Positions 1,713 to 19,079 of a DNA stretch of 19,079 nucleotides are shown in pieces. Position numbers and translations under genes: made by a program. Numbering within the stretch: position 1 is the stretch's first letter; every line of letters starts with the position of its first letter. The notes beneath the pieces were generated by a model. It worked only from the letters and a program-made list of their open reading frames with translations. It had not been told where the DNA came from and did not search any database. Origin of the DNA: Candidatus Rifleibacteriota bacterium (lineage in GTDB: Bacteria > Muiribacteriota > UBA6191 > JACPRK01 > JACQZM01); the NCBI GenBank assembly GCA_016213885.1, contig JACQZM010000117.1:1-19079 (forward strand), given 5' to 3'.

Positions 1713-2534
1713 ATGGAATGGCTCGCCTGGTGGAACCTGCTGTTCGAGCTCCCGATCGCGGGGGCCTGCCTCCTCTCCGTGGTGGCCACCATGGGGGCGG
1801 ACGCCTCGGCCGACGCCCCCCACGACGCTGACGCGTCCGTCGAGCACGACACCGACGTGGGGCACGAGGCGCCCCTGGAGGCCGGGCACGTCCTGGGCGT
1901 GAAGGACGCCCTGGGTGACGCCGCCCACGCCGTGGACTCCAAGGAGGCGCTGGCCGGCGGCGGTCACGGAGCCGACGCCAAGGCGCTCGTCTCCTCCGGC
2001 CACGGGTCGGTCGCGACCGGCGCCGGGCCGTGCCCCCCCGCGAGCCACGATGTCCCCTGGCTCACCTGGGTGCTCGCGCTCCCCGGGGCGGATCGGGCGC
2101 CGCTGTCGTTCGTGCTCATCGTCCTGTCCGTGTCGTTCGGGCTCATCGGGCTCGTGGCGAACCGGTTGCTCTCGGGTCTGTTGCCGCCGCTGGCGTTCGT
2201 CTGGATCTCCCTGGCCGTGGCCGGCTCGATGAGCCTCCTGGTGACCCGGACGTTCGCCCGCACCCTCGGCCGGTTCCTGCCCCGGATGGAGACGTACGCA
2301 CTGACCCGGGCGGACTGCGTCGGACAGGTCGGGAAGATCACCTGCCTGCTGTCGCCCCGGGAGGGCTACGCCCAGGTCTACGACCCGCAGAAGAACTTCC
2401 TGGAAGTGCGGGTGGTGGCCCGGGGCCAGACGACGTTCTCGCAAGGGGGGCAGGTGCTGCTCCTCGAGTACGAAGAGATCAACAGCCGGTTCGTGGCCGA
2501 ACCGTTCAACCCGGAGCTCGGCGCTTCGACCTAG
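1713..2534 (+). CDS. NfeD-like membrane protein (YqiJ/YuaF-type partner of SPFH/flotillin proteins)
   Basis: 273-aa ORF with hydrophobic N-terminal and central TM segments (LSFVLIVLSVSFGLIGLVANRLLSGLLPPLAFVWISLAVAGSMSLL). C-terminal beta-rich OB-fold-like region 'GQVGKITCLLSPREGYAQVY…FLEVRVVARGQTTFSQGGQVLLLEYEE' is typical of NfeD C-termini. Stop TAG at 2532-2534 sits 16 nt before the flotillin ATG. This is the classic nfeD–flotillin operon arrangement. Confidence 0.75.
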   Translation: MEWLAWWNLLFELPIAGACLLSVVATMGADASADAPHDADASVEHDTDVGHEAPLEAGHVLGVKDALGDAAHAVDSKEALAGGGHGADAKALVSSGHGSVATGAGPCPPASHDVPWLTWVLALPGADRAPLSFVLIVLSVSFGLIGLVANRLLSGLLPPLAFVWISLAVAGSMSLLVTRTFARTLGRFLPRMETYALTRADCVGQVGKITCLLSPREGYAQVYDPQKNFLEVRVVARGQTTFSQGGQVLLLEYEEINSRFVAEPFNPELGAST

Positions 2535-2550
2535 GAGGGCGATACCAGCC

Positions 2551-5198: not shown

Positions 5199-5242
5199 CG
5201 GGTCCGACCTACCGGCTCGACCAGAGCGTGGCGATCGCCTGC
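5199..5242. repeat. Second copy of the 44-bp direct repeat (inside the 3' end of the kinase CDS)
   Basis: Identical to 4440-4483. Contains the kinase stop codon (cta at 5209-5211 on plus = TAG on minus). Confidence 0.85.
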
Positions 5243-8200
5243 AAGACAGCCACGCCCAGCGTGCTCAGCACCCCGATCCACCACCGCCGTCGCTTCATCT
5301 CGCTGGCCAGAAGGGCCAGCGAGCCCACGATGGCGATCGGCGTGACCGCGAAAAAGAAGAACACCCGGTCGCCGGAGGAGGAGACATTCTGCAGGGCCAG
5401 CGACACGGCAGACACCGCCAGCGAGCTGACGAGCAGCACCCACGGCTGGACCGAAGGGTGCCCGCAGAACGCCCGGAACGCGAGGAGCGTGCCCAGGTAG
5501 GTCGCGACCCAGAGCGAAATCGCGAGAGCGGCACCCGCCCTGCTCTCCACGACGGCGATGAACGAGACCCAGAGGAGTGCCAGGATGCCCAGACGGTAGC
5601 TCACGCGCGGGGGCAGCTCCGGGGCCGGGTACAGCAGCTGGGAGAGAAACAGGACCACCGCCGGGCCGAAGGAGGCGACCAGCTGCACGAGGGGGTCGAG
5701 CTTGCCCTCGATGATCGCGTGGACCCCGAGGGTCAGTCCCAGCCAGAGGCCAAGCAGCGCGCCGCGGAGCTTCCAGGGCGAGAGCACGACCTGACGGCCG
5801 GGATAGAACATCAGGGCGAAGACCAGCGCCGGGACCGAGAGACAGACCCCCACGAGGAACGCCTGCTGCCCCTGCGGGCGGGGGACCAGCAGCGGGATCG
5901 CGATCATCACGATGACGGCATGGCCACCGAGGACGGCGAGAACGGTCCGTCTGCCGATCGGTTCGCAGGGGAGCTGCAGGTGGAGCGACCCTGCCGTCGC
6001 CGAGGCGCCGGGAGCAAAGCCCGCGGGCCAGCGGCACCAGGGCAGGACCATCAGCGCGATGACGCCGGCGTAGAGTCCCATGAAGAATGACGTCTCGGGG
6101 TACCACCCTTGTCGGGGGCACAACCCGGCGAGTCCGCTCAGCGGGAACCAGAGGACCGCGACCAGGACCACCAGCCAGGCGAGGCAGAAGCCGTCCCATC
6201 GGCGAGGAGCCCGGGCCGGTTCCGGCGCCTCGGCGGCCGGGCCGGACACCCCGGCACGCTCCGGGGGAGCGCTCTCCGGCACCGGGCTGACCGGCGCGCG
6301 ATCGGAGCGATCCGGTCCGGCCGGTCCGGTCGGTCCGGAGGTGAGCGCCTCCGGCCGATCCAGGGGGTACGCGGGATCCTCGGCGGGGTGGACGCGCACC
6401 GTGAGACGCTCGGGAGAGTGCCGGGCAGGCCAGACAGGATCCGATGAGTCCCGGGCGCCTCTCTCGATCGGAGGGGAGATGCGATCCGCGAGGCCGACCC
6501 GGGCGAGCGCCTGACTGAACTCCGAAACGAGAGCTCCGACCGTCCGGGGTCGCTCGTCACGCTGCTTGGCCAGAGCTCGCAGCACCACCGCCGCGACCGG
6601 GGAGGGCACGCCCTCCGGTTCCGGCACGGGCGCGTTCTGGATCGCCCAGGCGAGGTCGCCGCCGGAGAATGGCGGGGAGAGGGTCAGCATCTGGTAGAGC
6701 GTGGCCCCCAGGGCGTAGACGTCCGACCGCACGTCGAGCTTCTGACACGCCATCTGTTCGGGACTCATGTACGCGAGGGTGCCGGTCGGCACCATCCCGG
6801 TCTGGCGCGTCCGGAAGCTCGCCAGCTCCGCGGCGACTCCGAAATCGGCCAGCTTCGCTCTCACGCACCCGTCCGGTCCGGTCTCGAGCAAGACGTTCGA
6901 TGGCTTGAGGTCCCGGTGGATGATCCCGTGGTGGTGGGCGTGGTCGAGCGCAGCGGCCACCCCCTCCAGGATCGGCAGAGCCTCCCGTGGTGTCATCGGA
7001 CCGGCGTCGCTCTCGTTCCGGGAGGCCAGCTCGTCCGCCAGCGTCCGACCTGCGACGAACTCCATCACCAGGAAGGGAGGGTCGCCAGGCTCCAGGTTCA
7101 TCAGCCGGACGATGTTCGGATGGGTCAGCTTGAGCGAGAGCCTGGCCTCCTTGATCAGGTTCGTCCGGGATTCGCTGTCGCACCAGAGCTCGAGGGGGAG
7201 CAGCTTCACGGCCACCTCGCTCCCCTCCATGGCGCCGTCCCTCGCGAGCCACACCTGGCCCATGCCGCCGTGACCCAGAAGACGAACGAGCCGGTACCGG
7301 TCCGCCAGCATCCGCCCTTCGACGGGGTCGAACCGGTCCGGCGGGGGCGGTTTCGGCCGCTTCGGGGAGCTCTTCTTGCCCGGCGCGACGGTCCGGTAGA
7401 TCCGGAGCAACGCCTTGCGGAACTCCGACGCCCCCTGGAATCGTCGCGCGGGGTCCTTCTCCAGCGCCCTCTCGATCACCTCGTCGAGCTCCCCGGGAAG
7501 ACCGGGCCTGACCGAGCTGGCCAGGGGAGGCTCGGTCATCATGTGCTGGTAGAGGTGCTCCGGGATCGTCGGGCCCGGGAACGGGAGCTGACCGGTGACG
7601 ACCTCGAACAGCACGACCCCGACGGCGTACAGGTCGCTCGCCGGTGTGCACCGCTGTCCGCGACACTGTTCGGGCGACATGTACGCCGGGGTCCCCATGA
7701 TCTTCCCCGCGACCGTTCCGGACGGAAGGTGCTGCGCCCTGGCGAGGCCGAAGTCGCCGATCTTGGGCTCACCCTCTCGCGAGAGGAAGATGTTGGCGGG
7801 CTTCAGGTCCCTGTGCACCACCCCCTTGTCGTGGGCCACCTTGAGTCCTCCCAGAACCCTGAGCACGATGCGCAGGGCCTGTCGCAAGGAGAGGCGCGTC
7901 GGGTCTCTCAGGCGCTCTTGCAGCGAAGAGCCCTCCACGTACTCGCACACCACGTAGGGCAGGCCGCCGTCGTGGCCGGCGCCGTGGACCGCCACGATGT
8001 TCGTGTGGTTCAGGGAGGCCAGGACCTTCGCCTCCTTGACGAGCCGCCGGATCTGTTCGGTCGAGAGCTCGTCCCCTCTGACCACCTTCACGGCGACCAG
8101 CCGGTCGAGCTCGATCTGACGCGCCAGGTAGACCTTTCCCATCCCGCCCTCGCCCAGCGTCCTGATGATCCGGTACTGGGTCATGAAGGCCTGGGAGAAC

Positions 8201-8364
8201 CGGGCGAGGATCGGATCCGGAGGAGTCGTGGTGGCGCAGGTCTCCGGACCGGCGCCGACGACCACCGCCCGTCCGCACGAAGGGCAGCTGGCGCGGCCGC
8301 TGGAGTCGACGACGAGCGCCACCCGGTCCGGGCAGTGAGGGCAACAGAGCACGCCGTCGGTCAC
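5209..8364 (-). CDS. Membrane-anchored tandem Ser/Thr protein kinase: N-terminal C4 zinc ribbon, two Hanks-type kinase domains, Pro-rich linker, C-terminal ~9-10 TM domain (PglW-like?)
   Basis: 1051-aa ORF with GAAGGAG RBS upstream of the GTG start. Zinc ribbon: CCPHCP-x17-CPSCG. Kinase domain 1: LGEGGMGKVY, VAVKVV, HRDLKPANIFL, DFGLAR, GTPAYMSPEQ. Kinase domain 2: LGHGGMGQVWLA, VAVKLL, HRDLKPSNVLL, DFGVAAE, GTLAYMSPEQ. C-terminal ~330 aa form successive hydrophobic helices (e.g. LAWLVVLVAVLWFPLSGLAGL, VIALMVLPWC, AVIVMIAIPLLV, LVGVCLSVPALVFALMFY, LGILALLWVSFIAVV, FFFFAVTPIAIVGSLALLA). Confidence 0.9.
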   Translation of the reverse strand: MTDGVLCCPHCPDRVALVVDSSGRASCPSCGRAVVVGAGPETCATTTPPDPILARFSQAFMTQYRIIRTLGEGGMGKVYLARQIELDRLVAVKVVRGDELSTEQIRRLVKEAKVLASLNHTNIVAVHGAGHDGGLPYVVCEYVEGSSLQERLRDPTRLSLRQALRIVLRVLGGLKVAHDKGVVHRDLKPANIFLSREGEPKIGDFGLARAQHLPSGTVAGKIMGTPAYMSPEQCRGQRCTPASDLYAVGVVLFEVVTGQLPFPGPTIPEHLYQHMMTEPPLASSVRPGLPGELDEVIERALEKDPARRFQGASEFRKALLRIYRTVAPGKKSSPKRPKPPPPDRFDPVEGRMLADRYRLVRLLGHGGMGQVWLARDGAMEGSEVAVKLLPLELWCDSESRTNLIKEARLSLKLTHPNIVRLMNLEPGDPPFLVMEFVAGRTLADELASRNESDAGPMTPREALPILEGVAAALDHAHHHGIIHRDLKPSNVLLETGPDGCVRAKLADFGVAAELASFRTRQTGMVPTGTLAYMSPEQMACQKLDVRSDVYALGATLYQMLTLSPPFSGGDLAWAIQNAPVPEPEGVPSPVAAVVLRALAKQRDERPRTVGALVSEFSQALARVGLADRISPPIERGARDSSDPVWPARHSPERLTVRVHPAEDPAYPLDRPEALTSGPTGPAGPDRSDRAPVSPVPESAPPERAGVSGPAAEAPEPARAPRRWDGFCLAWLVVLVAVLWFPLSGLAGLCPRQGWYPETSFFMGLYAGVIALMVLPWCRWPAGFAPGASATAGSLHLQLPCEPIGRRTVLAVLGGHAVIVMIAIPLLVPRPQGQQAFLVGVCLSVPALVFALMFYPGRQVVLSPWKLRGALLGLWLGLTLGVHAIIEGKLDPLVQLVASFGPAVVLFLSQLLYPAPELPPRVSYRLGILALLWVSFIAVVESRAGAALAISLWVATYLGTLLAFRAFCGHPSVQPWVLLVSSLAVSAVSLALQNVSSSGDRVFFFFAVTPIAIVGSLALLASEMKRRRWWIGVLSTLGVAVLQAIATLWSSR

Positions 8365-8610
8365 GAGAGCTCTCCTTCGAGCCGGGCGCCGCTGCTGGCG
8401 GGCTCGCTCTTCCAGGGCCTCGCGATGGGCGCCGAGCGCAGCGTCGTCGGGTCCATCCTAGACCATCGCTCTCGAAGTTCCCAGGCAGTTGTCAGACCGC
8501 ACGCACGGGAGCTGGGAGCTGCCTGCCGGACACCGGCGTCGTCGCGGAGCCCGACGCCACCCGGACGAGTCCGTGAGGCCGTCTCCAGTAGACGCTCGGC
8601 AGCCACGGCA

Positions 8611-10743
8611 CTACACCAGAAACGCCGCCAGCAGGTCCGCCTCGGGACCGGCGAGCTCCCGCACCTCCGAGAAGGTCGCGGCCACCTCGACGACCCCCGT
8701 GGCCAGCAGCCGCTCGACGACCTGCCGGCGCCGGATGTCGATGGGCACGAGCCGGGCGTGCGCACCGGGCTCCTGGAGACGCTCCAGCCGCTTCCAGCAG
8801 GTCGCGACAGCCCGTTCGAGCGTCCGCGGATCGAGCCTGAGCGCCGCGGGTGACGGCGCCGCGTCCAGGGTGATGCTGGCGTCGCCTGCGGCACGGATCC
8901 GCAGGCCACTCCCGGCAAGATGCGCCGCCAGCGCCCGCGTTCCGGCTCCCCCGAGAAACGGGAACACGGCGATCCTCCCCGGCCCCGCCGGGATCACCGG
9001 GACGACCCCGACGGGGATGCCCAGGTGCTCCCGGACCGCCTGGGCCAGCCCGAGCGAGATGGGCATCGGGGCGGTGAAGTAGCGCGGCGCCTGGGCGGGG
9101 CCCGGGCCGGACCGATCGAGATAGGCCCGGCCGTCGGCGGTCGTGGTGAGGTGCCCGGTTCTTCCGGCGAACGCCACCGGTCCGGCCGCCGGGATGCCGG
9201 ACCGCTGGACGTCCCCGAGATGCTCGTGGGTCCCCGCATCGAACACGGCCACGGTGTCGCGGACCTGGCCCATGTTGGTGTGGAGCTTCCGCGGATCGGT
9301 CTCGAACCAGCGCTCCAGGGTCGGCCCGATGCCGTATCGTCCGCCCCGCGCCACGGTGAGCAGCCCCTGCTCGGTCATGGCGACCAGCACGGCCTGAAGG
9401 TGCAGAGCCGGACCGGCCGGGTCGACGACCCCGTCGGGGTCGGCCAGCAGCGCCTCGATCTCCGGACGCCCCACGGTGCCGCTGGAGCGCTGCAGCAGGT
9501 AGCTCGCGATCTGCTGGACCAGCACCGACGCCGCGAAGATCCGGCCGGGGCGCTCGATCTCGCCCTTCCGCGCCAGCGAGAGGATGACCTCGAACATCAC
9601 CTCGTCGGCCCTGCCGCGGGCGACGCCGAGCACCCTCGTGACGTCCTTTCTCCGGCGACAGCCACGGCCGATCTGCTGGAGGAACGAGGTGACGCTGGGG
9701 GGCGCGCCGACCTGGACGACCCAGTCCACGTCGCCGATGTCGATGCCGAGCTCCAGCGTCGAGGTGGCGACGAACACGGCCTGGGCGGCCCGGTGGAACG
9801 CCTCTTCTGCCGCCAGCCGGGTGCTCCTGGAGAGGCTCCCGTGGTGGGCGTAGACGTGGTGTCCCCAGGGAGCTTGCCCTGCGAGCTCCGCCGCCACCTC
9901 CTCGCATCCGGCCCGGCTCCGGGTGAAGACGAGCAGCTTGGCCGCCCCGGAGCGGGGAATCCGCCGGAGCGCCTGCAGCACCGTGCCGCCCCCGGCGAGC
10001 GGTGCGCCGATCGTCTCGATGGTCCGGCTCCCCGCCACCCGGAGGACCCCGGCGCCCGGTGCGAACGCCGCGGCGAGCGAGGCCGGGTCCGCCGCCGTGG
10101 CCGATACCAGGACGGTCTGGAGCGTCGAGCGCGGGTCTCGATCGCCCCGGTCCACGGCCGCCCGGTGGATCCGGCGCACCCTCGACATGAGGATGCCCAG
10201 CTGGTCGCCCCGGGGCGTGCCGTCCACGAGATGGATCTCGTCGAGCACCACCGCACGCACCCCGACGAGCTCCCCGGGCCTTCTCACCAGGAGCGAATCG
10301 AAGCTCTCCGGAGTCGTGATGAGCCACGGCGAGAGCCGCCCCTGTCGGCTCACCGGGTGGTCCGCCGTCTTCCGGCCCAGGACGATGCCGAGTCGCTCCA
10401 GTGGCGGAGCCAGCCGGCGGTAGAGGTCGTTCACCAGCGCCCGGGTGGGGCAGACCCAGAGAAGGGCCGCTCCGGCGTCGGCTCGGGCGAGGTGAAGCTC
10501 GGCCAGAGGCGCCGCAACCGCCTCGGTCTTGCCGCCGGCGGTCGGCGCAGCGACGACGGCGCTCTCCCCGGCCAGGAGCCGGGGGATCGCCGTCCGCTGG
10601 ATCGGCGTCAGTCGCCCGAACCGGCCGAAGAACGCGGGGCCGCAACGCCGGAGGGAGGCGAGGATCGCCCGCTCCAGAGCCCGATCGCTCTCCGGCTTCG
10701 CGAGAAGACCCGGCGGGGTCGAGGGCTCACGATTCGCGGTCAC
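8611..10743 (-). CDS. DEAD/DEAH-box superfamily-2 helicase, Lhr-like (BrxHI-like)
   Basis: 710-aa ORF. Its GTG start overlaps the stop of the upstream gene by 17 nt (gtgaccgcgaatcgtga). Motif I AAPTAGGKTEA, motif II VVLDEIHLV (DEIH), motif III VSATAAD, helicase C-terminal motif VI QQIGRGCRRR. A ~300-aa C-terminal extension follows, as in Lhr-type helicases. Confidence 0.85.
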   Translation of the reverse strand: MTANREPSTPPGLLAKPESDRALERAILASLRRCGPAFFGRFGRLTPIQRTAIPRLLAGESAVVAAPTAGGKTEAVAAPLAELHLARADAGAALLWVCPTRALVNDLYRRLAPPLERLGIVLGRKTADHPVSRQGRLSPWLITTPESFDSLLVRRPGELVGVRAVVLDEIHLVDGTPRGDQLGILMSRVRRIHRAAVDRGDRDPRSTLQTVLVSATAADPASLAAAFAPGAGVLRVAGSRTIETIGAPLAGGGTVLQALRRIPRSGAAKLLVFTRSRAGCEEVAAELAGQAPWGHHVYAHHGSLSRSTRLAAEEAFHRAAQAVFVATSTLELGIDIGDVDWVVQVGAPPSVTSFLQQIGRGCRRRKDVTRVLGVARGRADEVMFEVILSLARKGEIERPGRIFAASVLVQQIASYLLQRSSGTVGRPEIEALLADPDGVVDPAGPALHLQAVLVAMTEQGLLTVARGGRYGIGPTLERWFETDPRKLHTNMGQVRDTVAVFDAGTHEHLGDVQRSGIPAAGPVAFAGRTGHLTTTADGRAYLDRSGPGPAQAPRYFTAPMPISLGLAQAVREHLGIPVGVVPVIPAGPGRIAVFPFLGGAGTRALAAHLAGSGLRIRAAGDASITLDAAPSPAALRLDPRTLERAVATCWKRLERLQEPGAHARLVPIDIRRRQVVERLLATGVVEVAATFSEVRELAGPEADLLAAFLV

Positions 10744-12424
10744 GGCGCGGTCCCTCCACGAACGAGGCGATCTCGTCGGCGACTCGAGCCCAGCTCCAGC
10801 CCGATCGGGCGCGGACCAGATCGAGCCCGTTGACGACGGTCTGGACGACCTCGCGGAGGTTCTTGAACGTGCCGCTCTCGAGCCCGCTCTCGAAAGCCAG
10901 CGCGAGCCGCCTGCGGTCCTGCGGACCGGGTGGTGGAACCGCGGGGAACGCCCACCGGTAGGTCGCGTCGACGCGCTCGATCAACGAGGTCAGCTCGGCC
11001 TCGCCGAGACGGCCCGGCAGGGGCGTGACAAGGCTCTTGTCGGGCAACCACGAGACCAGATCGTCCTGGCCGGGCGCGGGGGTGCAGGCGACGACCAGGC
11101 CCAGGTTCGCCGGCGGCCGCCAGCAGAACGGGATCTTCTTCCTGCCGCCCTGGTAGGAGCCGCCGAGGTATTCGACCGGCAGCGAAGGACCCAGCGCGCT
11201 GGCCACGAGACCTTTGAAGAAGTCGACGGCCCGGCCCTCCATCTCGACGGAGAGGAGTCGCAGGTGCTCCGCCTCGTCGAGGAGGACGACGAGACCGGCG
11301 TGGCCCAGCAGGCGCACCAGGTCGGCCAGGCCGCTGATCAGGTAGGTGAAGTGGCTCGAGAGAGTCGTGTACGAGCCGAGGGAGAGCAGCGCCTGTCGGG
11401 CCGTGCGGACCGCGACCCGAGCCCGGAGGTCGTCGAGGTCGACGTCCTCGCCGGAGATCCACTGGTAGAGGTAGTCCTTGCCAGCGGCATCGCCGGACAA
11501 TCCCTGCCAGTTGAGCAACGTCGGTCCGAGGAACTCGTGCCACGCTCCTCGCCTCCGGCGAGCGAACGAATCGACGACCACCGGGGAGAGCACGGCCCGG
11601 TCGAGCAGCCCCACGAGCCCTCGTCCTCGCGCGTCCTCGCCGGGGACCCTGAGTGACTTCACCAGGGAGCGGTAGACGTTTCGGGGATGGTTCGCCTGGC
11701 ACTCGAACGCGTCGAGGTCGGCCCGCGCCACGACGAAATCCTCGTGGAGCGCCATCCTCCAGATGACGTCCAGCGCGTGGCTCTTCCCGCTGCCGTACGG
11801 CGCCGAGATCACCCTGACCGATCCACCGCGACGCGCCCTGGCCAGGTCGGCGGCGAACAGCCGACGCTCCCTCTCGAGCCCCACCGAGAGCGCCTCCACG
11901 GCGTAGCGCGGGACGATGCCGAACCGCAGCGCCTCCACGACGTTGCGACCCACCCGGCCCCGCCACCGGGCCCGCTCCTCCGGATCCACGGGATCCTGCC
12001 GGGGCTGCTCCTCTAGGCGTGGCCGGGCCGGCTCGTCCCGGGGGCGCTCACGGAGCCCCGACCCGGCGGGCTGACCCGGCGGGAGCTCGGGGGAGCTCTC
12101 GATCGCAGCCGGTGGTGTCGCCGGCGCAGCCCCGGACGCCGCTCCGGACGACGCCGGGGCGGGTGGCCCGTCCGCGACGGCCGTGACCTCCGGGCGCCGG
12201 AGCCAGATCACGAGCCCGATCGGAGGGTCCAACCGCACGAAGAGCTCGTGGCCGCCGAATCGCTCCGCGACCACCGTGCCGTGGCACCGGAAGCGCCCGA
12301 CCAGGACCCGGAACCCGATCATCGACGTCACGAGCGATCGCCGTCCCTGGTCAGTACTCGCCGCCGGCCTCGGCCTCGGTCTCCGATCTCGAGAGCGCCA
12401 GAAGCGACGTCTCGATCGGCGCAT
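10727..12424 (-). CDS. DUF2791/BrxD-like P-loop ATPase, paralogue of the upstream gene; annotated ORF start probably too far upstream (low-complexity N-terminal ~150 aa)
   Basis: Walker A 'VISAPYGSGKSHAL', Walker B 'LVVLLDEAEHL'. N-terminal block 'VGRNVVEALRFGIVPRYAVEALSVGLERE…GGSVRVISAPYGSGK' parallels 'ATRIIHRLGESGQPPTRGVQYFNVGNTRLLD…GGSSFKLVVGQYGGGK' of the adjacent BrxD-like protein. Overlaps the upstream gene by 74 nt as drawn; an internal start (e.g. MIGFRV…) would reduce this. Confidence 0.7.
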   Translation of the reverse strand: MRRSRRRFWRSRDRRPRPRPAASTDQGRRSLVTSMIGFRVLVGRFRCHGTVVAERFGGHELFVRLDPPIGLVIWLRRPEVTAVADGPPAPASSGAASGAAPATPPAAIESSPELPPGQPAGSGLRERPRDEPARPRLEEQPRQDPVDPEERARWRGRVGRNVVEALRFGIVPRYAVEALSVGLERERRLFAADLARARRGGSVRVISAPYGSGKSHALDVIWRMALHEDFVVARADLDAFECQANHPRNVYRSLVKSLRVPGEDARGRGLVGLLDRAVLSPVVVDSFARRRRGAWHEFLGPTLLNWQGLSGDAAGKDYLYQWISGEDVDLDDLRARVAVRTARQALLSLGSYTTLSSHFTYLISGLADLVRLLGHAGLVVLLDEAEHLRLLSVEMEGRAVDFFKGLVASALGPSLPVEYLGGSYQGGRKKIPFCWRPPANLGLVVACTPAPGQDDLVSWLPDKSLVTPLPGRLGEAELTSLIERVDATYRWAFPAVPPPGPQDRRRLALAFESGLESGTFKNLREVVQTVVNGLDLVRARSGWSWARVADEIASFVEGPRRDRES

Positions 12425-13643
12425 CCCAGGAAGGAACCGGCGACTCGCCGTCGACGGATTGCTGCATCAGATGGGCCACCAGAGTCTTCACGAACACCCG
12501 CCGCTGGTTCACCGAGAGCGTCTGCTCGTAGCACCTGCGGGCCAGGGCGCCGATGTTCGCAAGCTGCAGCCCCCGGTCGAACGACCGCCCCTTGTACACC
12601 TCGAACACCGCCAGGATCTTCTCCCCCATGGCGACGAGCAGCTCCTCCCCCGGGAGATCGAGCTCGTCGAGGTCGATACGGGGGGAAAAGGGGTTCCGCT
12701 CCGAGAACACCGTGGGGGCTTCGAGCCGCTGGTGCAACGCGGCGTACCGCGGCACCACGCTCTCCAGGAAATCCGGGGTCACCGAGTAGACGAACAGCGC
12801 CCCGGGGAGCTCCTCGTCGCCGCAGTGGTTCACCACGGAGAGCAGGTTCTCGCAGGCGTACTTCTGGGAGCGCGCGCTCATCATGCTGACCATCCGTTGC
12901 CCCTCGTCGAAGAGCAAGATCAACCCCTGGTAGCCGAGCTCCCTCACGAGCTGGCAGAGGTTCCGGAGCATGCGAAAGGCGTTGTGCTGGTGGGGAGCCT
13001 CGATGATCCCGAACGACCGGAGCTCGCCCCGTTCCAGCTCGTCGCCCTGGAGCCAGGAGCCCAGCGAGCTTCGGGTCTGCTCGTCGCCGCTCGCGACGGC
13101 GCCGACGAACCGCTGGACGGCGTTGCGGAAGCTGGGGTTCTCGACCTTGATCCGCCCCAGCGACTGCACGAACGCATCGAGCATCGCCCCGGTCTCGTCG
13201 GCGTTCTCGGCCTGGGCCGACAGGCGGCTGGAGAGCCCGTAGTAGTGGCCCTTGAGGAACTCGTCGACCCCCCTCTCCGGCTCCGAGGCGGCATCGCCGG
13301 GCGGGGCCTGGATGTTGCGAGCCACGGCCTGGTAGACCCGCAGCGGATCGTCGTACGGACACTCCTTCTGGGAGAGCTGCACGAAGCTCGTGGCGAAACC
13401 GTGCTTCCAGGCGAGCTCCCGGAGACAGAACATCAGGTGGGTCTTGCCGCCGCCGTACTGACCGACCACCAGCTTGAACGACGAGCCTCCCTCTTTCAGG
13501 TATGACTCGAGGTACTCCCTGGTGAGCGTGTCCAGAAGCCGGGTGTTGCCGACGTTGAAGTACTGGACGCCTCGGGTCGGAGGCTGGCCGCTCTCCCCGA
13601 GTCGATGGATGATCCGGGTCGCGTCACGTTTCGAGGGGAGCAT
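12351..13643 (-). CDS. brxD: BREX-type ATP-binding protein BrxD-like (DUF2791 family P-loop NTPase)
   Basis: 430 aa. N-terminal 'ATRIIHRLGESGQPP…GVQYFNVG…GGSSFKLVVGQYGGGKTHLMFCL' (Walker A), 'GLILLFDEGQRMVS' (Walker B). Size and motif order are typical of DUF2791/BrxD. ATG at 13641-13643. Confidence 0.7.
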   Translation of the reverse strand: MLPSKRDATRIIHRLGESGQPPTRGVQYFNVGNTRLLDTLTREYLESYLKEGGSSFKLVVGQYGGGKTHLMFCLRELAWKHGFATSFVQLSQKECPYDDPLRVYQAVARNIQAPPGDAASEPERGVDEFLKGHYYGLSSRLSAQAENADETGAMLDAFVQSLGRIKVENPSFRNAVQRFVGAVASGDEQTRSSLGSWLQGDELERGELRSFGIIEAPHQHNAFRMLRNLCQLVRELGYQGLILLFDEGQRMVSMMSARSQKYACENLLSVVNHCGDEELPGALFVYSVTPDFLESVVPRYAALHQRLEAPTVFSERNPFSPRIDLDELDLPGEELLVAMGEKILAVFEVYKGRSFDRGLQLANIGALARRCYEQTLSVNQRRVFVKTLVAHLMQQSVDGESPVPSWDAPIETSLLALSRSETEAEAGGEY

Positions 13644-13661
13644 GAGGAGTCGTCGCGCCTC

Positions 13662-14564
13662 CTAGCGCAGGCCGATCGCCTGGAAGTAGCTGCCGCCGCC
13701 CTTCTCGTCCGGCACCCAGAGCGAGCGGCCGTAGGCCCGGTCGTGCACCGCCACCTCGAGCTCCAGCTTCCGGCCTCCCACCTCGAAGCGCCGGGAGGCC
13801 CTCAGGCGGGCCAGGTCGTGGGCGAAGCGGAAAAGCGGGTAGTCCTTGAACCGCTTGGCGCTGGGGTCGCGCCGGAAGCCCTCGGACTGCATCTCCCACG
13901 CCAGGTGGCCGAAGAAGGCGAGGATGTCCACCAGCTCTCCCGGCGCCCTGTTCGCCGCCGTGACGCCAAGAGCATAGGCCGCGCTCAGGTGACGCAGAAA
14001 GACGTCGGGATCGAACGGCGGGATCTCGAGGTCGCCCAGGAACCGGGCCGTCGCCTCGCCGACCGCCTCCGGGTCCAGGGCGAGGCCTCGCAGCACGGTC
14101 CGCCGGGCGAACTCGACCTGGGCCCGGCCCGCCGCCGCGTCGATGACGATGCGGATCGCCCCGCAGGCGAACCCGTTGTCCGTGGGTTTCAGTTCCGGCC
14201 CTTCCGGGAGCAGTCTCGCAAGCGTCGCGGCCAGGGCGGTTCCGAAACGGGCAGCCGCGCGGCCCTCCGCGGCACGGGCCGCCTCTTCCAGGCCGTCCAG
14301 CGCCGGCTCGACGTTCGGTGCGCCGGCGACCTTCGAGGCCAGGTCCCGCAGGTGCTTCACCGAATCGAGCACCTGTCGAGGCGCCGCCTCGAGTCGTGGC
14401 ACCTGCTTGGCGAGCGTGGCCACGGCCCGGTCGAGCTCCGCGGCCAGCTTGGCGGCCCGGGAGGTCTCGACCCGCAGCGTCTCGAGGCGCTCGATGGTGG
14501 ATCGGTGGGCGCCGGGCGGCGCCGGCTGGTCGGTCTCGTCAGGCATGTCGCCATTGTAATACAT
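13662..14564 (-). CDS. Hypothetical protein (300 aa), predicted coiled-coil N-terminal third, no recognisable catalytic motif
   Basis: Clean ORF 18 nt upstream of brxD-like and 51 nt downstream of the 624-aa gene. The AT-rich start 'ATGTATTACAATGGCGACATGCC' is unusual for this genome. Heptad-like region 'TIERLETLRVETSRAAKLAAELDRAVATLAKQVPRLEAA'. Confidence 0.65.
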   Translation of the reverse strand: MYYNGDMPDETDQPAPPGAHRSTIERLETLRVETSRAAKLAAELDRAVATLAKQVPRLEAAPRQVLDSVKHLRDLASKVAGAPNVEPALDGLEEAARAAEGRAAARFGTALAATLARLLPEGPELKPTDNGFACGAIRIVIDAAAGRAQVEFARRTVLRGLALDPEAVGEATARFLGDLEIPPFDPDVFLRHLSAAYALGVTAANRAPGELVDILAFFGHLAWEMQSEGFRRDPSAKRFKDYPLFRFAHDLARLRASRRFEVGGRKLELEVAVHDRAYGRSLWVPDEKGGGSYFQAIGLR

Positions 14565-14615
14565 CGCTTGCGAAGTTGACAGACCGTAGCACCGGACGGC
14601 CGCACGAGCCGACCG

Positions 14616-16490
14616 TCAGAGGCGTGTCTTCGAAGGCGGCGCGAGCGCCGCGGCGGTCAGGAGCCTGCCGCGCAGCTTCTCCGGGGCGATCGACGCCTGC
14701 GGATCGAGGTCGTCGAGGATGTCCAGGACACGGTCGGCTCCGTCGATGCACGTCCGCCGGTCGGTCGTCTTCGACAGGAGCCAGAGATCGGCCCCTCCGC
14801 TGGTCAAGCCGAGCTCCCGCCGCAGCACCGCCCGGACCCGCTCCATCAGCTCCGGCATCGGCCTCAGCGTCCGGGCCAGCGACCCGGCGGTGCCCACACG
14901 GTACGAGAGCACCGCCCGGACATGATAGGCGACGCCCTCGAGGCGCACGACGTAGCCGGTCCGGTACAGCTCCTCGTGCGCTCCGAGAACCTGGTGAGCG
15001 CCGCTCGTCGTCCCGGCCACGAGCCGGTCCCGGATCGTGTCGAGCAGGCCCTTCTCGTAGCCCGCCCCGAGCTGGTCGGGGGTCAGGAACGGCGAGGCGA
15101 GGAAGGTCAGGAGCCCCCGGCCGAGGATGCGACCGTCCCCCCGCGGGCCCGGACGGATCTCGAGGGGGCGCTCGCCGAAGCCCCGGGCCAGAACGTCCAG
15201 GATCCCGCGGGCGACCCGGTCCGGCAGGTGGACGCACCGATCGACGTCGAGGGTGCTGGCTTTCGAGACCGTACGAGCCACCACGAGCCAGTAGTCCGAC
15301 GCGATCCGCAAGGCATCGAACTGTTCCAGGAGATGAGGCGCGGCCGCGGCCGGCACGTGGGGCCTGCGGGATCGACCCGGCGAGCGCGGGGCGGACTCCG
15401 ACGCCTCGGCCGCGGGCGCGACGGCGGCCGGACCCGGGGCGGTTCCGGACGGTGGCGGCTCCGGCTTGCGCGTGCAGCGACCGCAGCCGGGTTTCTCGAG
15501 GTCCCGGTGCCCCACCAGGACCTGGGTCGGCTCGCCACAGGAGGGGCAGTCCGGGAGGTCCACGGCGCCGACGACGACGTCGTAGCGCACCGGAACCCGG
15601 TGGGTCTCGGTCCCCTTCCACAGCAGCATCGAGGTGACGAACCGCGGGACGTGCAGCACCTCCACCGCCGCGACCCGGGCCTCGACGCGGGGGCGGTACC
15701 GGAGCTCGGTCTCCTTGAGCCGCATGTCGCGCTCGGCCTGGACAGCGGCGAGCATCTGGGCGGTCTTGAGGACCGAGTCGGCGGAACGGCTCCTGGAAGC
15801 CTTCGCCGCTAGCTCCTCCTCGCGCTGGCGGAAGTAGGCGCTGACCCTGCGCTCCTCCTCGGCCCGCTGGAGCTCGAGCTCTGCCGCCAGCGTCCGGAGC
15901 CGTTCGGTGGTGACCCTGTCGAGCTGGGCCAGGGTCGAAGCGACCACGAGCTCCGGCCCGACCTCGACGTCCAGCGGCAGGACGAACTGTCGGCCGCTCT
16001 GGAGGTTGAGTCGGTCGACCTCCGCGCGGTAGCGGTCCGCGGGCCGGCCGGTGGTCGCATCGATCCAGACCGGGCAGGCCACCTGCTGCACCACGTCGCC
16101 GTGGATGGAGATCACGAACTGCACGTTGAGCAGCCGACCCTCCATCAGGCGGCCCGGGCCCAGCTCGGCGAACCGCAGGCGGTCGAAGGTCAGGCACTCC
16201 CTCAGCCGGTGCTCCACCAGCGACGGGTCGACCGATCGGGCCGGCGCGTGGAGATGCTGTACCCGACCGGAGGCGAGCGTCCGGATGAGCGCCTCCTCGA
16301 GCCGCGGGCTGCCGAACGTCACCAGCTCGCGGGACGGCTTCTCCGCCGCTGCCTCCGGATCGAACGTGAGCTCCACCGGCGCCCCGTCCTCCGGCGTGGC
16401 CAGGTAGACTCCAGGCTCCGTCTCGACGGCGCCGTGGCCGAGGATCTCCAGGTAGCCCAGCAGGAAATCCTGGATCAGCGTCCGGTCCAT
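14616..16490 (-). CDS. Hypothetical protein (624 aa) with internal C4 zinc ribbon (DCPSCGEP…x15…GCGRCTRK), Pro/Ala-rich linker and ~250-aa C-terminal domain
   Basis: ORF ends 3 nt after the SNF2 gene stop (16490 vs 16494), suggesting translational coupling. No Walker, nuclease (PD-(D/E)xK, HNH, PLD HxK) or methyltransferase motifs found by eye. Confidence 0.7.
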   Translation of the reverse strand: MDRTLIQDFLLGYLEILGHGAVETEPGVYLATPEDGAPVELTFDPEAAAEKPSRELVTFGSPRLEEALIRTLASGRVQHLHAPARSVDPSLVEHRLRECLTFDRLRFAELGPGRLMEGRLLNVQFVISIHGDVVQQVACPVWIDATTGRPADRYRAEVDRLNLQSGRQFVLPLDVEVGPELVVASTLAQLDRVTTERLRTLAAELELQRAEEERRVSAYFRQREEELAAKASRSRSADSVLKTAQMLAAVQAERDMRLKETELRYRPRVEARVAAVEVLHVPRFVTSMLLWKGTETHRVPVRYDVVVGAVDLPDCPSCGEPTQVLVGHRDLEKPGCGRCTRKPEPPPSGTAPGPAAVAPAAEASESAPRSPGRSRRPHVPAAAAPHLLEQFDALRIASDYWLVVARTVSKASTLDVDRCVHLPDRVARGILDVLARGFGERPLEIRPGPRGDGRILGRGLLTFLASPFLTPDQLGAGYEKGLLDTIRDRLVAGTTSGAHQVLGAHEELYRTGYVVRLEGVAYHVRAVLSYRVGTAGSLARTLRPMPELMERVRAVLRRELGLTSGGADLWLLSKTTDRRTCIDGADRVLDILDDLDPQASIAPEKLRGRLLTAAALAPPSKTRL

Positions 16491-16493
16491 GCG

Positions 16494-18581
16494 CTACCCG
16501 CCCTCCTGGGGTTGGGCCCCGTCCTCCGGCGCGTCGCCCTGGCCTTCCACGCCCAGCCGGTCGCCCAGGATCGATTCGTTGAGCTCCTGCTGGAAGCGGA
16601 ACGCCTTCTTGGCCTCGTGCAGCCGGTCGCCCAGCGCTTCCATCGAGGCCCGCGCCGCCACCTCGTCGGCGGCACCGGCCCAGGCGTCGAACACCACCTC
16701 TTCGAAGCCGGTCTCCTCCTCGAGGTCGCCCAGGATCATGTCCATCTCGCCGACGACCAGTGCGAACAGGTCCAGCTTGCGCTCCAGCACGTCGATCAGA
16801 TCGTGCTCCAGCGTGCCGGCCGTCACCAGGTTGGTGACGCGCACCTCCCGCGTCTGACCGATGCGGTGCAGCCGTCCCAGCCGCTGCTCGATCCGCATCG
16901 GGTTCCAGGGCAGATCGAAGTTGACGAGGTTCCTGCAGAACTGCAGGTTCCTCCCCTCGGACCCGGACTCGGTGCAGATCAGGAGCTGGACCTCCTGCTC
17001 GAACCGGGCGACCGATCGATCCTTCTCGAGCCGCGACAGGCCGCCGTGGAAGAGACAGGCGCCGAACCCGGTCCGTTCGACGAAGGCGGCGAGGTGGTCG
17101 AGCGTCGCCCGGAACTGGGTGAAGATCACGGCCTTCTCGCCGTCCAGCTCCTGCAGCACCTGGAGGAACCGCAGCGTCTTGGCGGGGACGTCGACCGTGG
17201 CCAGCAGCGTGCGCAGCGATTCCAGCTCCGGATCCGTCGAGGCGGCGAGCGTGGCCGCGAGGGCCGCCGGCGAGGAGCCGCCGGCGAGCTGCAGCATCCT
17301 GAGCCTCATCGTTTCGTGAGCGCCGGGCTGGCCGCGATGGCGCCGGCGCACCAGGGCGCCGAGCCTTCCGTAGACCTCGGCCTCCGTGGTCGACGGCTGC
17401 ACCGAGACGGTATGGGCGGTCCGGGGGGGCAGCGCCAGTCCGGTGTCGGAGCGCCGGTTGCGGATCATGACCCCTTCCAGGAGCTGCCGCAGCTCCCCGA
17501 CGTTCTTGGCTCCGTCGGCGGCGACGAACCGCCCCTTGAAGCTCTTGAACGTACCGAGCTGCCCGGGCCTCAGCAGGGTCACCAGGTTGAACAGCTCCTT
17601 CAGATCGTTCTGGATCGGCGTCGCCGTCAGAAGCAGCATGAACCGCTTACGCAGCTGATTGACGAACTTCCAGGCCTGGGTGGTGGCGTTGCGCAGATGG
17701 TGGGCCTCGTCGATGATCACCAGGTCGTACTCCCTGGCGAGCACGAGGCTCCGGTGCGGCTCGCGCTTGGCCGTGGCCAGCGAGGCGATCAGCGTGGGGA
17801 ACCGGTACCACGGGTCGGGAAGGGCGTCGCGGAAGGGCGGCTCGTCCTGCATCACCAGCGAGACGCCGAAGTGGCGTCGCAGCTCCTCGCCCCACTGGCC
17901 GACCAGGGTCGGTGGCGTCAGGATGAGGGTCTTCTTCACCAGGCCGCGCGCCTGGTACTCCAGGAGCGTCATCGCGGCCTCTATGGTCTTGCCGAGGCCG
18001 ACCTCGTCGGCCAGGATGACGTGCCCCCGCATCCTGCCCATGACCCGTCGGACCACCCGCCGCTGGTAGTCGAAGGGGGTGAGCTCCCTGAGCTGGTTCT
18101 CGCACATCAGCACGTCCAGCGCCTGGGCGAGGGAGAGTTCCATGGCGCGACCGTGGAGATCCGACAGCGGGTCGTCCCGATGAACGCCGCGCAACGCCTC
18201 GAAGAGCAGCTCCAGACCGGTTCGTTCGATGACGATCCGACCGGCGGTCTGCGGGACCTCCGGGACCGGCCGGGAGCTCGTCGCAAGCTCCAGCACCGGT
18301 GTGTCGCCCGTGGAGATGATCCGGAGGCGGGCCTCCCTGCCCTGGGGGCCGATCATCCCGGACAGGCCGGCCCCGATCACCAGGTCGGGCTCCTGATCGG
18401 CGGCCAGCAGGACCTCGCGCCCCCCCCCATCCCTCAGGATCAGGCGTCGCGGTCGGCCCAGCCCCTGGAGCAGCTCGCCGACGCTGCGCTCCGCCGGCAG
18501 AGCATCGAGCGGAAGCCACTCGGGATCGATCTCGATGGCGACCTCGTCCCCGGCCGCAAGTCCCGTCGGTGAGGAGTCCAT
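16494..18581 (-). CDS. SNF2-family (Swi2/Snf2, RapA/HepA-like) DNA-dependent ATPase/helicase
   Basis: 695 aa. Motif I 'ILADEVGLGKTIEA', motif II 'DLVIIDEAHHLRN' (DEAH), motif III 'LLLTATPIQNDLKELF', motifs V-VI 'TESGSEGRNLQFCRNLVNFDLPWNPMRIEQRLGRLHRIGQ'. ATG at 18579-18581. Confidence 0.9.
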   Translation of the reverse strand: MDSSPTGLAAGDEVAIEIDPEWLPLDALPAERSVGELLQGLGRPRRLILRDGGGREVLLAADQEPDLVIGAGLSGMIGPQGREARLRIISTGDTPVLELATSSRPVPEVPQTAGRIVIERTGLELLFEALRGVHRDDPLSDLHGRAMELSLAQALDVLMCENQLRELTPFDYQRRVVRRVMGRMRGHVILADEVGLGKTIEAAMTLLEYQARGLVKKTLILTPPTLVGQWGEELRRHFGVSLVMQDEPPFRDALPDPWYRFPTLIASLATAKREPHRSLVLAREYDLVIIDEAHHLRNATTQAWKFVNQLRKRFMLLLTATPIQNDLKELFNLVTLLRPGQLGTFKSFKGRFVAADGAKNVGELRQLLEGVMIRNRRSDTGLALPPRTAHTVSVQPSTTEAEVYGRLGALVRRRHRGQPGAHETMRLRMLQLAGGSSPAALAATLAASTDPELESLRTLLATVDVPAKTLRFLQVLQELDGEKAVIFTQFRATLDHLAAFVERTGFGACLFHGGLSRLEKDRSVARFEQEVQLLICTESGSEGRNLQFCRNLVNFDLPWNPMRIEQRLGRLHRIGQTREVRVTNLVTAGTLEHDLIDVLERKLDLFALVVGEMDMILGDLEEETGFEEVVFDAWAGAADEVAARASMEALGDRLHEAKKAFRFQQELNESILGDRLGVEGQGDAPEDGAQPQEGG

Positions 18582-18588
18582 CGCGGCG

Positions 18589-18625
18589 AGTCTAGCTCGG
18601 ATTCCGGTGCCCTACCAGTCCGGGC
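18589..18625 (-). promoter_or_regulatory. Possible promoter for the SNF2-led operon: -10-like TAGACT ending 7 nt before the ATG (leaderless or near-leaderless transcript); weak -35
   Basis: Minus-strand sequence …ctggtagggcaccggaatccgagcTAGACTcgccgcgATG. It fits the Actinobacteria-type TANNNT -10 only; the -35 match is poor. Confidence 0.2.
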
Positions 18626-18640
18626 GGAGTGTCTCGATCG

Positions 18641-18667
18641 CCCATGGGGAGTACCCTCCCCTCTGGG
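18641..18667 (-). terminator. Stem-loop 16 nt downstream of the clpX stop (putative intrinsic terminator without U-tract)
   Basis: cccatGGGGAG-tacc-CTCCCCtctggg forms a ~11-bp stem with one bulge and a 4-nt loop. No T-run follows on the minus strand, which is common in high-GC actinobacterial terminators. Confidence 0.3.
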
Positions 18668-18682
18668 TCGACCAGAACGGAC

Positions 18683-19078
18683 TCAGCTCTCCAGCGACCC
18701 TTCCTCCTCGTCCTGGATCAGCAGCACGACCTGGCCGTGACGGACGGAGCGGTGCTTCTTCCGCTGGTTGAGCGCCGCTGCGACTCGCTCCTCCGTCACC
18801 ACGCAGTTCTTCAGATAGGGTCGCGACGGGAGCTTGAACATCAGGTCGAGCATCACCTCTTCCATGATCCTTCTCAGGCCCCGGGCGCCGCTTCCCTCCT
18901 GGATCGCCGCCTCGGCGATGGAGGTCAGCGCCTCCTCGGAGTAGGTCAGGTTGACCCCGTCCATGGCCATCAGCTCCTGGTATTGCTTGACCAGGCTGCT
19001 GGTCGGCTCGACCAGGATCCTCACCAGGTCGTCCCGGGACAGCCGGGTCAGCGGAGCGACCACGGGCAGGCGCCCCAC
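18683..19078 (-). CDS. clpX: ATP-dependent Clp protease ATP-binding subunit ClpX, C-terminal 131 codons (5' part beyond window end)
   Basis: 'LVEPTSSLVKQYQELMAMDGVNLTYSEEALTSIAEAAIQEGSGARGLRRIMEEVMLDLMFKLPS' matches the conserved ClpX C-terminal region (…KNALVKQYQKLF…GVEL.F…AL..IA..A…KTGARGLRSI.E..LLD.M…LPS). The ORF runs to the window edge. Confidence 0.8.
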   Translation of the reverse strand: MGRLPVVAPLTRLSRDDLVRILVEPTSSLVKQYQELMAMDGVNLTYSEEALTSIAEAAIQEGSGARGLRRIMEEVMLDLMFKLPSRPYLKNCVVTEERVAAALNQRKKHRSVRHGQVVLLIQDEEEGSLES

Positions 19079-19079
19079 C

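Follow-up and report, generated by a model that had tools for sequence, protein, structure and literature searches.

Gene content of the locus

The window analysed here, a stretch of 19,079 nucleotides (nt), is a complete contig (JACQZM010000117.1, assembly GCA_016213885.1) of a Candidatus Riflebacteria metagenome-assembled genome (MAG). Between positions 8611 and 18581 it carries six tightly packed open reading frames (ORFs), all on the minus strand, which will be referred to, in their order along the operon, as SNF2, U624, U300, D1, D2 and H (Table 1). The initial annotation had described six co-directional genes, and all of them are present where it placed them.

As called, the ORFs are separated by 3, 51 and 18 nt, then overlap by 74 and 17 nt. 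The 74-nt overlap, between D1 and D2, had been attributed to an over-long start of D2. Alignment with four homologues indeed places the true start of D2 at Met35 of the ORF (MIGFRVLVGRF...), and a 28-nt gap replaces the overlap; the N-terminal extension is nevertheless partly genuine, with a conserved domain of ~45 amino acids (aa) and a Pro/Ala-rich linker. The NCBI model of U300 has 294 aa, which implies a start at Met7, and U624 is 100% identical to NCBI HY815_07020. The GC content is even over the six-gene cluster.

Eleven ORFs of the window, i.e. the six genes and five flanking ones, were scanned against Pfam, PADLOC (PADLOC-DB 2.0.0) and NCBIfam. The domain calls made previously hold: SNF2 carries SNF2-rel_dom and Helicase_C, D1 and D2 each carry a BrxC_BrxD domain (PF10923, formerly DUF2791), and H, the Lhr-like helicase, carries DEAD and Helicase_C. 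The motifs quoted at that time were also located (DEAHHLRN in SNF2, DEIH and QQIGRGCRR in H, CPSC...GCGRC in U624). In these scans no nuclease, toxin, methyltransferase, PglZ or TerB domain was detected in the six genes and, as already noted, neither a methyltransferase nor PglZ is encoded in the window. The earlier statement that no named system covers the cluster stands for PADLOC-DB 2.0.0, where U300 and U624 have no match.

Table 1. Position of the six genes and of neighbouring features in the window (aa, amino acids; nt, nucleotides).
Feature	Position	Strand	Length	Description
SNF2	16494-18581	-	695 aa	RapA/BrxHII/DrmD-like SNF2 ATPase, gene 1 of the accessory module
U624	14616-16490	-	624 aa	Partner of SNF2
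U300	13662-14564	-	300 aa (294 aa if start is Met7, 14546)	Marker protein of the core cassette
D1	12351-13643	-	430 aa	BrxD-like ORC/Cdc6-type AAA+ ATPase
D2	10727-12322 (ORF 10727-12424)	-	531 aa from the revised start (ORF 565 aa)	Second, divergent BrxD-like ATPase
H	8611-10743	-	710 aa	Lhr/BrxHI-like (Ski2-type) superfamily 2 (SF2) helicase
Sigma-70-like promoter match	14553-14582	-		CTGTCA-18-TACAAT, in the U624/U300 spacer
clpX 3' end	18683-19078			Upstream of the six-gene cluster
Tandem Ser/Thr kinase	5209-8364	-	1051 aa	Polytopic membrane tail; 246 nt downstream of H

A four-gene cassette conserved across lineages

The six genes had been read at first as a single functional unit, with U624 and U300 as two novel components of the same system. 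This view is not retained: U300-D1-D2-H is found in other loci without SNF2 and U624, SNF2 and its partner are found without U300-D1-D2-H, and U624 and U300 sit in different modules. U300-D1-D2-H will be called the core cassette and SNF2/U624 the accessory module.

Loci were collected by scanning the metagenomes of the Joint Genome Institute (JGI) with a degenerate, frame-exact DNA pattern made from a block of U300 (Q..F..P..Y..D[LV]xRLR..A). The scan gave 62 loci (designated L and a number), each with a true U300-family gene; with the loci fetched before and the window they make 65, which were sorted into 44 distinct U300 lineages whose GC content ranges from 0.40 to 0.74. Genes were called on all loci and hidden Markov models (HMMs) were built for all six proteins. 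D1 follows U300 in 26 of the 27 lineages with at least 1.3 kb of downstream DNA. D1, D2 and H follow it in this order in 11 of the 14 lineages with at least 5 kb when a crude gene caller is used, and in about 13 of these 14 after inspection. Adjacent genes are separated by short gaps or overlap, and the window proteins score 529 (U300), 935 (D1), 994 (D2) and 1402 bits (H) on the HMMs of the cassette families. Thus the same gene order occurs in dozens of unrelated contigs, an arrangement far beyond chance.

Eighteen lineages have enough upstream DNA for the accessory module to be scored. In 10 of them U300-D1-D2-H stands without SNF2/U624, while in the other 8 an SNF2 orthologue lies upstream of U300 in the same orientation. 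Both situations are met on the contigs of close U300 homologues: the six-gene order in L004/L005 and L006, and U300-D1-D2-H alone in L007 to L010, behind a divergently oriented TPR-peptidase gene. In all, the six-gene order is kept in L004/L005/L015, L006, L028, L049, L056, L060/L019/L075 and L071, and a chance juxtaposition of the genes in the window is excluded.

Searches of plasmids with the window U300, and of plasmids and phages with P0019 as a U300 query, gave no match by tblastn. The plasmid examples of the cassette described below surfaced through a query with D1.

The proteins of the cassette

U300 has no match in Pfam, PADLOC or NCBIfam. The description of U300 and U624 as two proteins without recognisable motifs is correct in that neither matches these collections, but U300 is no orphan. 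An exhaustive profile search places it in a large family that carries no annotation, of which 860 representatives (clusters at 50% identity) reach E<=1e-3 and 513 reach E<=1e-10; their length is typically 270-310 aa. Its structural model (predicted local distance difference test, pLDDT, 87) opens with three long helices; the C-terminal half is alpha/beta, with a five-stranded sheet and then a helical segment ending in a helix and a beta-hairpin that carry a conserved FAxDLxRLR. Judged from the secondary structure of the model only, this region looks winged-helix-like. U300 was also considered as a homologous counterpart of TerB/SngA and rejected, the alignment (hhalign) of its profile with a Sulfitobacter TerB-N protein giving a probability of 0.1. 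Two representatives of the family (P0049 and P0101, ~730 aa) combine GlmM (phosphoglucosamine mutase) and a U300 domain in one chain; they may be real fusions or read-through gene calls.

D1 matches BrxC_BrxD over its full length (4.2e-50) and, in PADLOC, BrxD (5e-40, 136 bits) and SngB (2.1e-31). On the NCBIfam BREX_BrxD model (NF033438) it reaches 137.1 bits, below the cut-off of 350. Its Walker A (GGGKTH, ~13437-13454) and Walker B (DE, ~12903-12908) motifs are at least 85% conserved over 29 diverse orthologues, and no solved relative was found among structures. D2 is more distant, with a BrxC_BrxD match of 3.7e-26 that starts at residue 158 of the ORF and 72.8 bits on NF033438, again below the cut-off of 350. 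Its N-terminus consists of a conserved domain of ~45 aa (12185-12322, MIGFRVLVGRFRCHGTVVAERFGGHELFVRLDPP...), kept in most of 22 diverse orthologues, then of the Pro/Ala-rich linker that leads to the ATPase (Walker A YGSGKSH, ~11777-11797; Walker B DEAE, ~11267-11278).

D1 and D2 share 22% identity (E=3e-13) and their orthologue sets are cleanly separated by HMMs; from these sequence comparisons they are read as ancient paralogues that predate the diversification of the family and have both been kept ever since. Both sets (29 orthologues for D1, 22 for D2) preserve Walker A (GxGK[TS]H) and Walker B (DE). The retention of two paralogues with intact Walker motifs argues for a predicted heteromeric, catalytically active pair.

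H matches DEAD (2.3e-26) and Helicase_C (6.7e-17) in Pfam, and BrxHI (5.7e-75, positions 21-452 of the 698 of the model only) and SngC (2.6e-55) in PADLOC. It remains below the cut-offs of the ligase-associated DEXH helicase model TIGR04121 of NCBIfam (169 bits, cut-off 850) and of PRK13767 (148 bits, cut-off 849). Its nearest solved structures are Lhr (5v9x, 6.6e-24; 7lhl, 3.1e-23) and Hel308. Motif I (GKT) lies at ~10525-10533 and DEIH at ~10231-10242; the last ~300 aa are divergent. Orthologues of H keep motifs I, II and VI together with further conserved residues in the C-terminus. As isolated Pfam queries, the D2 N-terminus and the H C-terminus returned nothing usable.

The SNF2/U624 module

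SNF2 matches SNF2-rel_dom (4.3e-40) and Helicase_C (5e-22) in Pfam, and the joint BrxHI/BrxHII model (1.5e-65) and DrmD (1.5e-63) in PADLOC. On the NCBIfam models it stays below the cut-offs of both DrmD models (235 bits for a cut-off of 610, 214 for a cut-off of 950) and of RapA (NF003426, 218 bits for a cut-off of 576). Its nearest solved structure is RapA (1.7e-46), with a match confined to the ATPase core. The DEAH box is at ~17688-17711 and an N-terminal PxDALP motif is conserved.

In U624 an N-terminal domain precedes a long coiled coil; next come a beta segment that holds a C4 zinc ribbon (~15474-15548), a Pro-rich linker and a clade-specific C-terminal domain of ~240 aa. The AlphaFold2 model of U624 has a pLDDT of 54. 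It has no match in Pfam, PADLOC or NCBIfam, and pieces of U624 or the SNF2 N-terminus used as isolated Pfam queries gave nothing usable. U624 is rare: a word-index search of 5.8 billion clusters found 4 proteins, to which a profile search adds none, and in every case the gene is directly after that of SNF2. A U624 query against the plasmid collection gave no match.

More distant counterparts of U624 exist. Where an SNF2 orthologue stands upstream of U300 (~540-550 bits in most loci, 229 in L042), one gene of ~385-410 aa nearly always lies between them. Its product is organised like the first two thirds of U624: a long coiled coil separates an N-terminal domain from a beta segment, which bears a cluster of cysteines. 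The spacing of these cysteines in the distant partners is RING-like (C-x2-C-x10-C-x4-H-x2-C-x2-C-x9-C-x2-C), and Pfam RING families match weakly (E 0.08-0.2); the window U624 keeps a single C4 site and has the ~240-aa C-terminal domain in addition. Reciprocal HMM matches indicate that U624 is homologous to these partners and to those of cyanobacterial plasmids (~346-410 aa together): U624 matches the partner HMM at 1.4e-9 to 7.8e-6, and the plasmid partners match the U624 HMM at ~7e-9.

The module also occurs by itself. In a second Riflebacteria MAG (L001) SNF2 and U624 are alone, with no ATPase or helicase genes after them, between a Prok-RING_1 gene upstream and a solute-binding protein gene downstream in the opposite orientation. 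The SNF2 and partner pair is likewise found by itself on mobilizable plasmids of Nostoc, Calothrix and Oscillatoria, where it scores ~500 bits (SNF2) and 2e-27 (partner) on the HMMs built here and has PIN, RelE/ParE, AbiEii, integrase and relaxase genes as neighbours.

Genes for Prok-RING_1 zinc fingers adjoin both modules: in L001 (309-800) such a gene overlaps the start of SNF2, and in L008 (371-784) and L009 (10-399) it is one gene away from the four-gene cassette. Together with the RING-like cysteines of the distant SNF2 partners, these neighbours hint at a recurring RING/treble-clef component. Two loci that are not related to each other (L004, 1114-3747; L056, 9124-10794) encode, a few kb upstream of the six genes, a second and different SNF2 helicase of the DUF3670 (HelZ-like) type; in L056 it adjoins a beta-CASP/RNase J-like metallo-beta-lactamase protein.

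Cultured examples and genomic neighbourhoods

Two plasmids of cultured bacteria carry the cassette. The conjugative plasmid3 of Aulosira laxa NIES-50 (L079, AP018310.1, 2651-24287) has a BREX locus ordered BrxA-(BrxB?)-BrxC-PglX-PglZ-BrxD-BrxHI (BrxC 1742, PglX 1930, PglZ 1057, BrxD 552 and BrxHI 848-929 bits), followed 173 nt further by the cassette (BAZ78461 to BAZ78464), i.e. a 279-aa protein of the U300 family (2.8e-21 with the broad HMM), then orthologues of D1, D2 and H. On the PADLOC BrxD model, which gives 552 bits to the genuine BrxD, the D1 of this cassette scores 121 bits. Since the plasmid carries both sets, the genuine BrxD and BrxHI coexist with the cassette as distinct paralogues; cooperation of the cassette with BREX is a possibility that these tandem ATPase-helicase sets raise.

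The second example is pDESTI.01 (26.9 kb) of Desulfomonile tiedjei DSM 6799. The four cassette genes are there alone (WP_014813311 to WP_014813314), labelled in RefSeq as one hypothetical protein, two 'BREX system ATP-binding domain-containing protein' and one DEAD/DEAH box helicase, and lie near an AbiEi/AbiEii pair. Among the metagenomic loci, L036 has as neighbours a full-length type IIG restriction-modification (RM) enzyme (1605 bits), two type IV restriction enzymes and a HerA/mad8-like protein, and L025 a type IIG-like methyltransferase and an LmuB-like SMC ATPase.

Other loci have housekeeping neighbours. In L030 (1624-4127)/L076 the cassette is 84 nt downstream of glmM in a cdaA-ybbR-glmM operon; elsewhere the neighbours are proS (L040), peptidase M3 and a type II secretion system ATPase (L044), a molybdopterin oxidoreductase (L042) and, in the window, clpX. 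Such mixed neighbourhoods fit an accessory cassette inserted at many sites.

Other features of the window

A single promoter-like site was found in 8200-18800, in the spacer between U624 and U300 (1 found, 0.2 expected); it is a consensus match alone. Going by this sequence match, it is possible that the four-gene cassette has its own promoter. Neither Rfam families nor tRNAs were found in the window, and no convincing flanking repeats that would mark an insertion were found around the cluster. A 19-nt inverted pair (8431-8449 / 18476-18494, 89% complementary) brackets nearly the whole cluster; being one of 25 similar pairs in 8000-19079, it was taken as chance.

The kinase downstream of H is Cys-rich at its N-terminus and ends in a long polytopic membrane region; its two Hanks-type Ser/Thr kinase domains each contain HRDLKP and DFG and are apparently active. 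The protein loosely resembles the tandem kinase PglW (PADLOC PglW 3.6e-54), through generic matches. As a component of the system it was ruled out because it is missing from the close relatives L005 and L015. Further away, the plus strand carries what looks like an NfeD-SPFH pair (1713-4434): the first protein has 273 aa and matches YqiJ_N (NfeD-like) weakly, the second is a flotillin-like protein of 627 aa (SPFH/Band 7). Positions 8-1399 encode a cell-wall hydrolase (Amidase_3).

Interpretation and alternative explanations

The locus is a composite of the core cassette U300-D1-D2-H and the accessory SNF2/U624 module. We propose that the core would be an undescribed anti-mobile-element system of the BrxD-BrxHI / SngB-SngC class, and give this reading of the locus an even chance. 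The cassette is likely to be a new relative of anti-phage modules already known, and its putative defence role rests on this homology and on four clearly defence-like neighbourhoods.

A more detailed version, which we hold tentatively and at a little under an even chance, makes of U300-D1-D2-H an unnamed, widespread, stand-alone anti-phage/anti-plasmid system, in which a heteromeric pair of ORC/Cdc6-like ATPases and an adaptor of novel fold would load an Lhr-like helicase onto invader DNA with no dedicated nuclease, the SNF2 and RING/zinc-ribbon pair being a plug-in second module. In the mechanism that goes with the main proposal, D1 and D2, as catalytically intact AAA+ paralogues, would form a hetero-oligomer that, with U300 as DNA- or partner-binding subunit, would recognise invading or aberrant DNA. 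This complex would load or activate H, a predicted 3'-5' translocase by homology with Lhr, and H would unwind or strip the replication and transcription intermediates of the invader. Since the genes include neither a nuclease nor a toxin, the helicase itself would drive interference, or host nucleases would be relied on. The scheme is modelled on ORC/Cdc6 loaders, on what has been suggested for BrxD-BrxHI (PMC12839542) and on the helicase-as-sensor logic of Hachiman. SNF2/U624 is an independently mobile two-gene unit, repeatedly fixed directly upstream of the cassette; its probable contribution is a second activity, DNA- or RNA-polymerase-directed, in remodelling or sensing.

Several observations weigh against the main proposal. 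Neither module contains a recognisable effector, be it a nuclease, a toxin or a membrane protein, and the fold of U300, without match among PDB and viral structures, gives no functional clue. Most neighbourhoods of the cassette are made of housekeeping genes, only about four contexts are clearly defence-like, and the neighbourhood pattern by itself is no strong defence-island signal. The cassette is also incomplete in places: in the L033/L044/L064 lineage no H gene comes after U300-D1-D2, and L040 has an orphan U300 (6725-7630) adjoining proS with no D1, D2 or H within 2.4 kb. U300 was found neither in phage records, searched by tblastn, nor in IMG/VR, scanned with the DNA pattern, which gives no viral link either way. 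Finally, the taxonomic spread is named for Riflebacteria, one cyanobacterium and one Desulfomonile, the other loci being metagenome contigs.

The main rival explanation is that SNF2 with its partner and U300-D1-D2-H are two independent systems side by side, brought together by co-transfer or by the habit of defence islands, with no joint mechanism. That each module is found alone, that the SNF2 pair is missing in 10 of 18 lineages and that a promoter-like site lies between the modules all go in this direction. But the order, orientation and spacing of SNF2, partner and U300 (gaps mostly below 100 nt) are identical in eight divergent lineages whose U300 are only ~25% identical, unlike what random island neighbours would give, and we regard two unconnected systems as rather unlikely while giving them real weight. 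A module for genome maintenance (DNA repair, replication restart or resolution of transcription conflicts), combining an Lhr-type repair helicase, AAA+ loaders and a RapA-like polymerase-recycling ATPase, appears improbable. It would agree with the absence of nuclease and toxin, with the many housekeeping neighbours, with the proximity of SNF2 to RapA, and with H, whose nearest solved structures are the repair helicases Lhr and Hel308 and whose best NCBIfam match is a ligase-associated damage-response helicase. However, all cut-offs of the repair families are missed widely, the best HMM matches are models of defence systems, and the cassette is met in many genomic neighbourhoods, on plasmids and adjoining BREX, RM and AbiE genes.

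Decay of a BREX type 2 or 6 system, with PglX, PglZ and BrxC lost and BrxD, BrxHI and debris left, would account for the matches of D1, D2 and H to the BrxD and BrxHI models, and for the loosely PglW-like kinase downstream. This kinase is nevertheless missing from the close relatives and its matches are generic; D1 and D2 reach 137 and 73 bits where the BrxD cut-off is 350. The cassette is moreover conserved in 44 lineages, and the loci inspected show neither PglZ nor PglX next to it; in Aulosira it lies beside a complete BREX that includes a BrxD and a BrxHI. A decayed BREX is thus highly improbable.

If the proposal of a composite locus with a defensive core is true, the cassette would be a new defence family and would help to understand the part played in immunity by ORC-like ATPases and Lhr-like helicases where no nuclease is obvious. 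As a stand-alone system, it would also be a minimal, tractable model for the function of BrxD-BrxHI in BREX and of SngB-SngC in Shango. Its presence on plasmids of the cultured D. tiedjei DSM 6799 and A. laxa NIES-50 makes it directly clonable, and the SNF2 pair, as an independent mobile module, is separable from it for study.

Comparison with known systems

BrxD (DUF2791) and the Lhr-like helicase BrxHI are accessory components of BREX types 2 and 6. DrmD is the SNF2 helicase of DISARM, and SNF2 ATPases of the RapA / BrxHII / DrmD / ArmA type occur in BREX type 3, DISARM, Dpd and ARMADA. The initial annotation had related the window proteins to BrxD, BrxHI and DrmD; D1, D2 and SNF2 are relatives of BrxD and DrmD but not members of their families, all curated cut-offs being missed, and H is a relative of BrxHI that matches part of its model.

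The BrxD-BrxHI dyad (Goldfarb 2015; PMC12839542) resembles the cassette in that a stand-alone ORC/Cdc6-type AAA+ ATPase (PF10923) is directly followed by a Ski2/Lhr-like SF2 helicase, and its PADLOC models are the best matches of D1/D2 and H. BrxD has been proposed to load or activate BrxHI (PMC12839542), and a 2026 survey of BREX treats BrxD-BrxHI only within BREX type 2. The cassette differs from the dyad by its two paralogous ATPases instead of one and by an obligatory extra protein, U300. It differs from BREX types 2 and 6 as a whole in that the window has no PglX, PglZ, BrxC (BrxC/PglY) or PglW, and in that D1 and D2 score far under the BrxD equivalog cut-off.

Shango is composed of the TerB-domain protein SngA, the ATPase SngB and the helicase SngC and confers a modest protection, 10-100-fold (Millman 2022; Johnson 2022, bioRxiv 10.1101/2022.11.11.516204). 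It is, like the cassette, a small stand-alone set with a first gene of unknown function, a BrxD-like ATPase, a DEAD/DEAH helicase and no recognisable nuclease. D1 and D2 match SngB and H matches SngC, less well than BrxD and BrxHI (PADLOC models, which have no curated cut-off). In contrast, neither U300 nor U624 matches TerB/SngA in Pfam or PADLOC; U300 lacks both a TerB domain and any detectable similarity to a Sulfitobacter SngA, and the ATPase of the cassette is duplicated.

Hachiman, made of the nuclease HamA and of HamB, a Ski2-like helicase acting as a sensor of DNA state (PMC12278908), may offer a functional analogy for H. However, no HamA-like nuclease is present here, HamB models match H weakly (~1e-11 to 1e-12), and Hachiman has no AAA+ ATPases.

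For the accessory module, the SNF2 core is nearest to RapA among solved structures and to BrxHII and DrmD among defence models. The window SNF2 is nevertheless shorter (695 aa versus roughly 870-1040 aa; ~968 aa for the RapA layout), and it is paired with a coiled-coil zinc-ribbon/RING-like protein, not with a methyltransferase, DrmA/B or a YprA-type helicase, in a pair that is mobile on its own. The scans of the window found no DUF1998 (DrmB), no DrmA-level match and no methyltransferase, i.e. none of these DISARM components.

PADLOC-DB 2.0.0 holds no model for U300 or U624, nor any candidate-system model that scores above BrxD/SngB for D1 and D2 or above BrxHI/SngC for H, and full-text literature searches found no description of the U300-D1-D2-H cassette. 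BrxD-BrxHI in BREX types 2 and 6 and SngB-SngC in Shango are recurring ATPase-helicase pairs. The cassette is a third and widespread arrangement of this kind, without methyltransferase, PglZ or TerB, with a duplicated ATPase and with the addition of a protein of unrecognised fold.

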